Shown here: one piece after another, positions 5,370 to 9,409 of the stretch
Numbering within the stretch: position 1 is the stretch's first letter
Layout of the letters: every line of letters begins with the position of its first letter
NCBI GenBank assembly: GCA_951406725.2
Contig: OX597836.1
Coordinates: 28,458,001-28,522,000 of the forward strand
Length of the DNA: 64,000 nucleotides
Direction of reading: 5' to 3'
Source of the DNA: Octopus vulgaris
Taxonomy: Eukaryota
Position numbers and translations under genes: made by a program
Notes under the pieces: generated by a model
Told to the model about the DNA's origin: nothing
Seen by the model: the letters and a program-made list of their open reading frames with translations, nothing else
The model's database searches: none

Positions 5370-5445
5370 ATGGATAAACTAAAAATAAATATCCGTGCAG
5401 TCTTACAGAGTGCTAAGAATGGAGTGGAGGCTTCAAATTTTGAAG
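5370..5445 (+). CDS. TDRD7: TDRD7 coding exon 1, LOTUS1 N-part (MDKLKINIRAVLQSAKNGVEASNFE)
   Basis: Polypyrimidine+cag acceptor at 5361-5363, ATG at 5370, donor GTAAAT at 5446 (phase 1); RAVLQS-KNGV LOTUS signature. Confidence 0.9.
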
Positions 5446-5599
5446 GTAAATTGTTTTTTTAAGGTATTAATCATCTAGGTAAGGCAGTGGTGGTGGTGGC
5501 TGAGACTTTGGTTTGAAGGTGAGGGCTTTATACCAAAATTCTTAGCTCTTTATTGTTCATTCTGTGTGCCATGCTGAATCACCCTGAGAACTATGTTAA

Positions 5600-5988
5600 C
5601 CCTTTCGTTACCAACCCGGCTGAAACCGGCTCTGGCTCTGAGTGCAAATGTCTTGTTTGCATAAGTTTTGAATTAAAATCTCCCACTAAACCTTAGTCAC
5701 AATTTATGTTCCTAACACTAGCTGAATGATAACTAAGTTATTTTACTAAATTCTTTGTTATATTTAACCCTTTTGATACCAACCCGACTGAAACCGGCTC
5801 TGGTTCTGAGTGCAAATGTCTTGTTTGCATAAGTTTTGAATTAAAATCTCCCACCAAACCTTAGTCACAATTTATGTTCCTAACACTAAATTAATGATAA
5901 CTAAGTTATTTTACTAAATTCTTTGTTATATTTAAAATTAATTGAAAGAAACACAGAACATCTCAAAATAAATACAGTAACGAAAGGG
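5600..5988. mobile_element. piggyBac-like MITE (TTAA TSD, CCCTTTCGTTAC TIR) with internal tandem duplication, inserted in a SINE
   Basis: ttaa|ccctttcgttac...gtaacgaaaggg|ttaa; empty site visible in the SINE copy at ~14525-14570 (gagaactacgttaaggg); sister copy 57338-57558. Confidence 0.85.
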
Positions 5989-6825
5989 TTAAGGTTATGC
6001 ATGTCTGTGGAGTGCTCAGCTACTTCGTTATCATCATCATTGTTTGATGTCCGTTTTCCATGCTGGCATGGGTTGGATGGTTTGATAGAGTTCTGGAGAG
6101 TTAGCGGCTACACCAGATCAGATTGGAGCCTGGTGCAGCCACTGGCTCTCCAGACCTCAGTCAAACTGTCCAACTCATGCCAGCATGGAAAATAGACATT
6201 AAACGACGATGATGATGATGAGGCAGTTCCGTTGATCGGATCAACTGGAACACTCTTAAAGGCATAACCGGCAGAGCGCCAGTTAATTTTCCCTGTTACA
6301 GTGATGGACCCTGTTTTATAAATTTGTATATTTTCCAATGAATTTGTTTGGGTGATCAATTTTATGGTCTGGAGTCTCACTTCACTATCAACTTATTACT
6401 GCTAGCAACAACAACAACAACAGCACACCGCAGACTGTCACTCTCTCCTCTTTCTTAACCATCTATACATACAGACATCTAATCCTCATGTAACATCTGA
6501 CACCTTGTCTTGTTTACATAAACGGATTTCCGAAACTTTCTTCAGTGATGATATAATGACTTAATCTCCTTCAACCACACAGAGATACAATCACTACACA
6601 TACTAAGCAAACAGTCCTGTTATCCCAACCTGTCTCTTCAGTTATCCGTGACACAATGGAAGCCCTCACCTGCTATAAACACAAGAGCTCACAATCTCTA
6701 TCAAGTCTTCCATGGTGAATTCTATTTTGTAAACCAGACTCTCTTTTTAGCACGAACACACGACACACACATGCACACAACGTGAACGCACACACACAAG
6801 CACACATGAACTGAGACGAACACAC

Positions 6826-7200
6826 AGGAACCCACACGGACACACACGAACCCACACGGACACACACGAACCCACACGGACACACACGAACCCACACGGA
6901 CACACACGAACCCACACGGACACACACGAACCCACACGGGCACACACGAACCCACACGGACACACATGAACCCACACGGACACACATGAACCCACACGGA
7001 CACACACGAAACCACACGGACATACGAACCCACACGGACACACATGAACCCACACGGGCACACACGAACCCACACGGACACACATGAACCCACACGGACA
7101 CACACGAACCCACACGGACATACGAACCCACACGGACACACACAAACTCACACGGACACACACGAACCACACGAACACACCCACGAGCACACACGAACCC
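6826..7200. repeat. 20-bp minisatellite (gaacccacacggacacacac)n
   Basis: Direct inspection; explains overlapping Cys/Val- and His/Thr-rich ORFs. Confidence 0.95.
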
Positions 7201-7834
7201 ACCCACGAACATACACATACACGCAAACACACACACACACCTGTGACTGCTGCTGTTGGACATACATTTAGAACAATGGTTCTCAACTGTGGCTTCCAGG
7301 GACACATGTGGCCCTCAGCATCCTTCAAGTGGCCTTTGGTTTTCTCTCTATAAATACAATAAATTTTCCTTTAAATGATTTGTAACTTACCATTTTTGGT
7401 GTGGCTCACTAAATAAAATCCAGATTTTGGATTTGGCCCAGATATTCCCCTATTTCTTCTTGCTACCCTTTGTATTGCAACTGCAGTGCTCACTGTTCCT
7501 CTAAAGCAGACAGTTTCTTATCCCCTCGACCCAGGTGCTCCTTAGTCACCCTTCTTACCTCTTCTAATTCCTCCTGCGTCCTAATTCCTCTTCTCTGTCA
7601 ACCCCATCTGTGTATTAGACCTCTGCCTACAAATGTTTAAACTGGACATTAACCTCTCTGTCTACCTGATCCACTCAAGACTTTAGTTGGCCTGGGGCTA
7701 TTTAGTAGAAGACACTTGCCCAAGGTGCCACTCGGTGGAACTGAACCCAAGACCATATGGTTGGGAAGCAAGCTTCTTAACCACAGCCATGCCTGTTACA
7801 CATAGGTGTATGTCTTACCATCATTTAAGTCCTT

Positions 7835-8208
7835 TTTACTTGTACTTGTAGCGACATTTACCCTGGGCGGGTTGAGTCGACTTCTTCTCATGGAAGAAGT
7901 TTCGTGGGGATATGTGGATTTCACAAGCGGTCCCCAACAATCCTGCATGTAGAGACATCCTGTTTGCCACAGATTGCCCGCAGACGCAGGGACAGAACAA
8001 CCGAAGAGCCGCTGGTTGCCGAAGCAGACACTCCGAGGATTTTCACTAGAGCCCCGTCTGCTGGGTTGTGGCCCTAATACCACTCAGTGTCAGAGCAATC
8101 CGCCTTGGGTGGTCCTACCAGGAACCGAAGTTCCCGACAGCATAGCTCTGACGCTACCCGTTGCCAGCGTCCCCACCACGGTGAGGAGGGGATGGACTTT
8201 GGGGACGC
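7835..8208 (-). mobile_element. Non-autonomous RTE-related short retroelement with structured 5' end and (ACAAGT)-type tail
   Basis: Near-perfect 13-bp direct repeat catttaagYcctt at 7822-7834 and 8208-8220; minus-strand tail tacaagtacaagtaaa; 5' part resembles RTE 5' UTRs (cc....cgtggtg...gagctatgc...cctggtagg). Confidence 0.7.
8052..8208 (-). ncRNA. Candidate HDV-like self-cleaving ribozyme
   Basis: P1 GCGUCCCC/GGGGACGC, L3 UCACCGU, P1.1 CA/UG, GCAA, P4 GGGU/ACCC, CNRA (CAGA), P2 CCCC/GGGG; a few mismatches. Confidence 0.6.
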
Positions 8209-9303
8209 ATTTAAGCCCTTCGTTACCATATTTCTTTAAAACTACATTGCCTTTGGTTCAACAAATTTTGAAAATATTGAAGAATTTAGTTAAAAAAAAC
8301 TTTGTCATTATTCAGCTGTTGTTTGGGACATAAATTAACATGGAATTCTGATGGAAGGTTTTAATTTACATCACTTTAAAACTTGGAACTTGTACCATAA
8401 GAACCAGGGGCAGTCTCAGACAGGTTGATATCAAAAGAGTTAATGTCCCTTTTTTCCATGCTGTGGGTTGGATGGTTTGACAGGAGCTGGTAAGGCTGGA
8501 AGCTGTACCAGGTTCCATTGTCTGTTTTGGTCGGATGCTCTTCCTAACACCAACCTCTTTTGAGAGTGTACTGGGTACTTTTTCTGTGGTGCCAGCACTG
8601 ACAGGATCGCCTGTGTGAGTGTGTGGGTGTGTGTGTGTGTGTGTGTTTGTATATGTGTGTGTGTGTATATATATATATATAGGTGCAGGAGTGGCTGTGT
8701 GGTAAGTAGTTTGCTTACCAACCACATGGTTCTGGGTTCAGTTCCACTGTGTGGCACCTTGGGCAGGTGTCTTCTACTATAGCCTCAGGCCGACCAGAGC
8801 CTTGTGAGAGGATTTGGTAGATGGAAACTGGAAGGAGCCCGTTGTATATGTTTGTGTGCCTGTGTTTGTTCTCCCACCATTGCTTAGGCAATTGAGGTTT
8901 GTGTGTTTACATCCCTGTAACTTAGCGGCTCGGCAAATGTGACCGATAGAATGAGTACTAAGTTTACAAAGGTGGTGCTCCAGCATGGCTGCAGTCAAAT
9001 GACTGAAACAAATTAAAAGAATAACAAAAAAAAAAAAAGAAAGAATCCATCCATCCATTCACTAACACAAACACACACATCTGTATATGCACACACCTGT
9101 ATATGCACACACACACACACACACACCTGTATATGCACACACACACACACATCTGTATATGCACACACACACACACACATCTGTGTACACACACACACAT
9201 CTGTATACACACGCACACACACAAAACTGAATCTCCATTTTGCTTCATGATTTTCATTACATTTTTGTCAATGTTTTACCTTTGTTTTTTTTTCACTATT
9301 TAG

Positions 9304-9409
9304 ACCACTACAGAAGCTTGACAAAAGAAAACATACAATATGCACAGTATGGCTATAAGAGCCTTGACGAACTTATGGCCAACATTCCAGATACTGTATA
9401 CTTAGCAAA
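9304..9409 (+). CDS. TDRD7: TDRD7 exon 2, LOTUS1 (DHYRSLTKENIQYAQYGYKSLDELMANIPDTVYLA)
   Basis: tag acceptor, GTAAGT donor, phase 1 to 2; YRSLT..GY.SL..L..IP LOTUS motif. Confidence 0.92.

Follow-up and report, generated by a model that had tools for sequence, protein, structure and literature searches.

A predicted HDV-like ribozyme heads a bipartite, non-autonomous retroelement family of likely RTE origin in the octopus genome

The minus strand of the 64,000-nt window (the whole stretch of Octopus vulgaris DNA analyzed here) carries a 374-bp insert that is very probably a ribozyme-headed, bipartite mini-RTE; the complete 5'UTR of a longer parent is joined to the last ~50 bases of that parent, and the first 157 bases are predicted to fold as an HDV-like ribozyme. 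The insert runs from 8208 to 7835, contains no intact ORF and has a GC content of 56%, against 39% for the window. Its limits as a whole non-autonomous bipartite retroelement (7835-8208, minus strand) are set by a sharp-ended family alignment and by a two-part match to a long element, L050. Direct sequence comparison reveals a 13-bp target site duplication with one mismatch, of which the 5' copy spans 8208-8220 and the 3' copy 7822-7834; the last base of the duplication is also the first G of the element (8208), a 1-nt overlap. At the 3' end, the sequence and the family alignment delineate an (ACAAGT)2 microsatellite tail (7838-7849, minus strand), whose two units at 7849-7838 are followed by AAA. 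The earlier note on this DNA had described a GC-rich insert of ~370 bp with a 13-bp near-identical direct repeat and an ACAAGT tail, in agreement with these coordinates. It had also reported no retroelement ORF; the element is indeed non-coding, but it retains the parent ATG (7891-7889), the last ~10 codons and the stop position. Pieces of other, very abundant repeats flank the element at window positions ~7680-7790 and 8256-8510.

A search of the 2.8-Gb assembly with the whole element gave 1544 first-look candidates, 40 of which were scored, with full-length matches at 91-94% identity. Exact 25-mers from the head and tail matched 220 and 394 times, and their reversed controls 0 times; the genome-wide search proposed in the earlier note thus recovers a dispersed family. 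Since the head 25-mer is present in just 16 of 39 loci picked without it, the sequence matches suggest ~500 or more headed copies. A previous tail pattern taken from the window copy had found 11 matches only, owing to a private change in that copy. Within a 60-row alignment, conservation starts at the first G, with no common sequence upstream, and identity to the majority sequence is 93-99% for most copies; the two outliers are one inverted and one 3'-only copy. The 60 loci picked by the head 25-mer comprise 57 short bipartite copies, one long copy and two that the script left unassigned, one of which (L196) is a longer deletion form, while the 30 tail-picked loci comprise 23 bipartite and seven 3'-only copies. 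The 5' ends pile up at the G that opens P1, as had been anticipated: matches begin at position 1 in 29 of the 60 head-picked loci and within positions 1-6 in 46. Among the 23 tail-picked bipartite loci they begin at position 1 in eight, within positions 1-5 in 14 and within the first 33 nt in 22. Roughly half of the copies are missing 1-30 nt at the 5' end, and a strict script detected target duplications of at least 8 nt in 26 of 60 loci. Abundant family copies also occur in contigs of four runs, under three organism labels; no empty insertion site was found among these contigs.

In some loci, head fragments are repeated ahead of the full head (L017, L028, L070, L058, L053, L200). A screen flagged six of 114 loci, one of them with a repeat 250 nt away that is probably unrelated; L053 was seen separately. 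In two loci that share a joint but lie on different contigs, the repeated fragment covers positions ~1-187; in another it covers positions 1-57, and L058 contains five tandem head units of ~18 nt. Each fragment restarts at or near position 1. This arrangement looks like template jumping at the RNA 5' end. It is consistent with a defined RNA 5' end, which a fixed start of transcription would equally provide.

Twenty loci were retrieved together with long flanks, and one of them, L050, identifies the parent. Its head matches element positions 1-321 (92.8%), its tail matches the last 54 nt (85%), and between them lies ~2.7 kb of a broken endonuclease and reverse-transcriptase (RT) frame. Because the homology falls in two parts around this frame, we read the insert as two joined pieces of the parent: the complete 5'UTR up to and including the ATG, and a 3' piece with the last ~10 codons, the stop and a short 3'UTR. 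In the window copy, the remaining parent 5'UTR occupies 7892-8045 (minus strand) and is retained by nearly all short copies; the end of the parent ORF (~10 codons and the stop position) and the short 3'UTR, with a predicted 3' stem-loop, occupy 7850-7887 (minus strand). The element therefore has no coding capacity, the ORF being lost from the ATG to its last ~10 codons. No tRNA was found among its six Rfam matches at E-values up to 10, arguing for no tRNA head. The search for an autonomous relative was successful in that L050 shares both ends, although its frame is broken: the parent is ~3.1 kb, lies in the same genome as the insert and has a broken ORF, and no intact copy was seen in a search with an endonuclease piece, in which ~25 of the 150 places scored were 50-100% identical and carried open frames of at most 361 codons. 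The lack of any intact parent ORF in this search makes it likely that the family is now dormant.

Among database proteins, P0001 comes closest; it is 73% identical over the RT region and comprises a single frame of ~1035 residues (1035 aa in all) with endonuclease and RT only, lacking both RNase H and a zinc knuckle. Of the matches whose source is a named animal, flatworm proteins rank highest, at 40-44%. An endonuclease-RT architecture, a length of ~3.1 kb and a microsatellite tail are traits that we take to be those of the RTE clade, to which the parent likely belongs by architecture rather than by a tree. An abundant, separate RTE family with many intact frames of ~1095 codons (L092-L102) was considered as the parent and rejected, having different 5' and 3' ends and 29% protein identity to P0001. 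This family, which also has a C-terminal Cys/His motif, was probably active recently. RTE-2_OV, with a long microsatellite 3'UTR and a zinc finger (PMC9115989), is a poor fit to the parent; the four of eight supplementary files searched gave no sequence match to the octopus families. The parent L050 has 56% GC in an AT-rich genome, and its protein is 70-80% identical to P0001, against ~33% to the named mollusc proteins listed; a horizontal transfer of the parent is possible on these sequence data.

The predicted HDV-like ribozyme (P1, P2, P3, L3, P1.1, P4 and J4/2) occupies 8052-8208 on the minus strand, and its predicted cut site is located just 5' of G 8208. The 5' strand of P1 (8201-8208) pairs with 8167-8174 at all eight positions. 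The P3-L3-P3' core (8175-8187, minus strand) comprises two base pairs and a U.U mismatch in place of the first P3 pair, closed by the 7-nt L3, and is accompanied by a GCAA linker. P1.1 is formed by C8183 and A8182 of L3 with G8165 and U8166 (CA/UG). P2 comprises four contiguous pairs, 8191-8188 with 8055-8052. Its 3' strand is adjacent to a conserved hexamer (together 8046-8055, minus strand) that could add 3 bp to P2; this extension is invariant, and hence carries no covariation signal. P4 and its branched insert of ~90 nt, which features a C(UUCG)G hairpin at 8140-8115, span 8062-8160 (minus strand), with pairs 8159-8156 to 8066-8063. J4/2 (8057-8061, minus strand) reads GCAGA, and its position suggests a catalytic role for C 8060. 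The earlier note had placed P1, P2, P3, L3, P1.1, the linker, P4, the candidate catalytic C and the UUCG hairpin correctly throughout, and its claim that the element starts exactly at the P1 G 8208 is borne out by the family, whose 5' boundary is the first P1 base. Its GGGU/ACCC P4 had the right coordinates but omitted a fifth pair, 8160-8062, which is C-G in the family and C.A in the window copy. The private changes of this copy are a G-to-A substitution at 8062 that disrupts the first P4 pair, together with a change at 8047. The two features that had been read as signs of inactivity, an 8-bp P1 and an extra nucleotide in J4/2, are both family consensus and not damage to the window copy.

An HDV-type descriptor, which was loosened to accept the window copy and written after seeing it, matched one site on both strands of the 64-kb window, with its start at 8208 and its C at 8060. 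Dinucleotide shuffles of the element matched this descriptor anywhere in 2 of 5000 cases, and at the 5' end in 0 of 5000. Together with the helix table of five families, the descriptor places P1, P2, P3, P1.1 and P4 in the correct order for a nested double pseudoknot. Rfam returned nothing at threshold; the best match was RF02682, at 16.6 bits (E=5.2) against a gathering score of 44, which is a database threshold and not a mechanistic criterion. That match covers the 5' half only and breaks off at the P4 insert, yet L3, P1.1, the linker and J4/2 align with RF02682, the consensus of which has U-A at the second P1.1 pair where the octopus element has A-U. Nested minimum free energy (MFE) folding, which is blind to the pseudoknot, was no better for the window copy than for shuffles (z=-0.57). 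When the family consensus was subjected to nested folding, P1 reached a probability of 0.38 and a rival hairpin took the 5' strand of P2.

Related families, named B, B2, C and the distant D alongside the window family A, were uncovered by a protein search and two motif searches with 76 and 36 matches (controls 0); the family D protein is ~33% identical. As a MAFFT alignment of the five families misplaced P1 and family D, helices were counted by anchoring on L3 rather than with a covariance model, leaving 53 of 59 usable copies in A, four of eight in B, two of two in B2, 25 of 27 in C and 24 of 26 in D. The majority P1 of family A is GCGUCCCC/GGGGACGC (8/8 paired), that of family B CCCCCU/AGGGGG (6/7) and that of family C CUACCCU/AGGGUGG (7/7). 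In the two copies of B2, CCGCCCU and a matching 3' strand pair at 6/7, and in D five C-G pairs are followed by two mismatches and one pair (6/8). P1 thus carries compensatory changes in B, B2 and C. When strands are swapped, the 5' strand of family A forms 6/6 Watson-Crick pairs with the 3' strand of that family, against 2-4/6 with the 3' strands of the other families; P1 is C-G-rich, so swapped strands partly pair anyway. P2, elsewhere CCCC/GGGG, has changed on both sides to CCGU/ACGG in family D. P4 opens with C-G in all families and shows two-sided changes in C and D, with a compensatory fifth-position pair in C; the P4 insert is missing from D, and its hairpin has also changed on both sides in B. 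P3 (U.U, C-G, C-G) and P1.1 (C-G, A-U) are invariant across the five families, and an extra base before P2 is found in four.

Conserved bases in L3 and a catalytic C in a C-N-R-A junction form the pattern of HDV-like ribozymes. L3 reads UCACCGU, UCAUCGU or UCAAAGC, retaining its U, C and G in five families. J4/2 is GCAGA, GCUAA or GCCAA, the latter two in related families; it varies only within C-N-R-A, and the candidate catalytic C is kept in all five. In every family the 5' boundary is the first base of P1, which is C in families B-D. Covariation, the check proposed for this fold, is therefore present between families in P1, P2 and P4; within family A there is none, its copies being 93-99% alike and star-like, and P3 and P1.1 are invariant. 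The HDV-like fold of the element head is well supported at the level of sequence, because its core is preserved in four related families through compensatory substitutions in P1, P2 and P4.

Further features were observed in these families. The family D loci L142-L166 have a compact predicted ribozyme of 80 nt, with no P4 insert, and short deletion forms of their own; a 3' fragment of this distant RTE family lies at window positions ~1700-1950, inside the minus-strand ORF 1681-2115, and its translation matches the family D 3' ends of L158 and L162. In four family B loci (L074, L080/L120, L113 and L133) the 5' strands of P1 and P2 have given way to a common foreign 5' flank, from which we conclude that this chimeric form spread without an intact ribozyme. 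In family C (e.g. L071 and L110), element positions 96-118, in the P4 insert, are complementary over 23 nt to the 3' stem-loop region. Shuffles did as well in 0 of 300 cases for C, and in 110, 290 and 47 of 300 for A, B and D, which is not significant.

Whether the folded head also cuts must be weighed separately. We consider cleavage by the family consensus probable, and place cleavage by the window copy at slightly less than an even chance. Alternatively, the HDV-like head may fold and not cut, or cut too slowly, and be kept as a promoter, protein-binding or RNA-stabilizing module, the 5' end being set by transcription start. We judge this unlikely. The U.U in P3 is invariant, a hairpin competes with the fold, and P2 is short, where R2 ribozymes have at least five P2 pairs (PMC3774820). 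The promoter start of L1Tc coincides with its cleavage site (PMC3185411), so 5' ends alone cannot discriminate, and 109 of the 111 bipartite loci retain the whole 5'UTR rather than just the ribozyme. Conversely, the candidate catalytic C, the C-N-R-A junction and the L3 U, C and G persist in five families, one of them at ~33% protein identity, and R2 ribozymes with mismatches in P1, P2 or P3 are reported active (PMC3774820). An initial C, as in families B-D, is also compatible with cleavage, since the active L1Tc ribozyme likewise starts with C at +1 (PMC3185411).

In the likely mechanism, an element copy would be transcribed by read-through or from an internal promoter, and the predicted ribozyme would then release the element RNA from any upstream transcript by cleaving immediately 5' of G 8208, setting its precise 5' end. 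The parent protein would then bind the 3' stem-loop and tail in trans, a mode of mobilization suggested by the shared ends and tail, and the RNA would be copied into a new site via target-primed reverse transcription. Short forms probably arose repeatedly, by the polymerase skipping the ORF, and later out-copied the parent. The view of the earlier note that the insert is a ribozyme-headed, non-autonomous RTE derivative is supported by the dispersed copies, their P1-G ends, L050, the between-family covariation and the octopus host, with the ribozyme predicted and the RTE assignment by architecture.

The window copy itself is a passive antisense passenger of an intron, with a weakened P4 base. 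The host intron (5445-9293, plus strand) lies between the first two coding exons (~5370-5444 and 9294-9407) of a TDRD7-like gene, delimited by tblastn of protein P0103 on the window; 21 pieces at 5370-62269 (plus strand) cover the first 977 of its 1158 residues. A LOTUS/Tudor protein with the label Octopus vulgaris matches one window exon at 100% identity, and its relative in Argonauta is named TDRD7-like (names and Pfam annotations of P0103/P0104). Since the element lies antisense within the first coding intron of this gene and the descriptor finds no ribozyme on the plus strand, no effect on the host gene is expected.

The deletion joints bear on how the short forms arose. In the window copy, the joint (7881-7899, minus strand) comprises CUUCUUC (7899-7893), the parent ATG (7891-7889) and GAAGAAG (7887-7881). 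Across 111 bipartite loci, three joint types are found in 38, 15 and 9 loci, alongside 10 or more other types that are clearly distinct; the 5'UTR is kept to its end in 109. The 5' breaks fall 14-49 nt from a 5' anchor (its CUUCUUC ends at 16), a window of ~35 nt that begins at the edge of this arm, while the retained 3' parts extend 16-382 nt from a second, 3' anchor (its GAAGAAG starts at 17), spreading the 3' breaks over more than 360 nt as far as the edge of the other arm; one 3' value of 8 is a slippage artefact. The short copies could in principle be independent decay products of DNA deletion after insertion rather than a self-propagating family, and many joints are indeed seen once, some with 3-6 nt of microhomology. 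We consider this highly improbable: the three recurrent joints occur on different contigs, in different flanks and with their own target duplications, and short copies far outnumber long ones. Decay is contradicted for the main joint classes; singletons may still fit it. That a GC-rich 5'UTR produced the HDV-like fold by chance is scarcely credible, since the weak Rfam score, the MFE result and a descriptor fitted to the window copy are set against the absence of shuffled matches at the 5' end, the compensatory changes across families and a P1 start that is the element start in each family.

Returning to a self-propagating family, a dozen or more different joints stop at the two complementary 7-mers, which hints that the ends of the element RNA pair with each other. 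The CUUCUUC/GAAGAAG hairpin closes at a probability above 0.9 in predicted folding of the short element. We tentatively propose that a helix between the 5'UTR end and the ORF end of RTEs may place the start-codon region beside the reverse transcriptase, which would jump to that region once it has copied the 3' arm. With majority sequences, shuffles did as well in 42, 17, 327 and 10 of 2000 cases for families A, C, B and D, in windows chosen after the match was seen and with A and C not independent; this gives modest support in A, C and D and none in B. With single real copies, shuffles did as well in 654-834 of 1000 cases for the worn copies of A and C, which is not significant, and in 24 and 2 of 1000 for B and D. 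Family D, of unrelated sequence, has its own helix at the same place, and three of the eight short forms observed for it lack the 5' arm. Much of the joint pattern could also result from selection that favors an entire 5'UTR and a minimal tail, and we therefore offer end-pairing as a hypothesis. If true, ORF deletion would be steered to one place, explaining why RTEs repeatedly spawn ribozyme-headed mini-elements and answering the question of why few LINE clades make bipartite derivatives (PMC5786205). The minimal RTE template would then comprise a ribozyme, 5'UTR, joint hairpin, 3' stem-loop and tail, which bears on RTE-based gene-insertion templates, where cognate 5' and 3' UTRs are used (PMC13708176).

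These data annotate an octopus repeat family that SINE-style pipelines would leave unclassified, and supply its parent and head structure. They also add five natural, predicted HDV-like variants missed by Rfam; family D is the compact one, the other four have a large P4 insert, and U.U in P3 is common to them all.

The earlier note considered this mobile-element system undescribed; the kind has in fact been described, in bipartite RTEs (PMC5786205), NARTc (PMC3185411) and R2 SIDEs (PMC3414825). For the octopus ribozyme-headed element itself, or for end-pairing in RTEs, no report was found in the literature; Repbase and Dfam lie outside that search and may list the family. Bipartite, ORF-less RTE LINEs include RTE-N2_Lch, RTESINE1/2, MAR4_MD, WALLSI3 and Bov-A (Kojima 2018, PMC5786205), of which RTE-N2_Lch comprises the 5' 214 bp and 3' 70 bp of RTE-4_Lch. 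Like the octopus element, they join a 5'UTR to the extreme 3' end, with no ORF and no tRNA head, and their retention of the parent 5' end has been tied to a self-cleaving 5' ribozyme (PMC5786205). The octopus family differs in its host (the word octopus is not in the main text of that source), in a ribozyme resolved helix by helix and in many independent joints per family; complementary 7-mers at the joint find no mention in the available text of PMC5786205. NARTc and L1Tc of Trypanosoma cruzi likewise share an HDV-like head between parent and non-autonomous element, cut at +1, and are dispersed. Their parent is of Ingi type with RNase H, and their compact 77-nt ribozyme, with a 1-bp P1.1, has been shown to be active (PMC3185411), whereas the octopus ribozyme is a prediction of 157 nt with a large P4 insert and a 2-bp P1.1. 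The R2 SIDEs of Drosophila resemble the octopus element in joining a ribozyme to a 3' end by internal deletion and in moving in trans, but are rDNA-specific and rare (PMC3414825), while the octopus copies are dispersed, number in the hundreds and outnumber the parent. The HDV-like ribozymes of RTEs (PMC5786205, PMC6765202) occupy the same 5'-end position as the octopus head, which departs from RF02682 in its U.U in P3, A-U in P1.1, ~90-nt P4 insert and extra base before P2. Overall, its sequence places the octopus family in the bipartite non-autonomous LINE class, RTE by architecture, and so among elements of a known kind.
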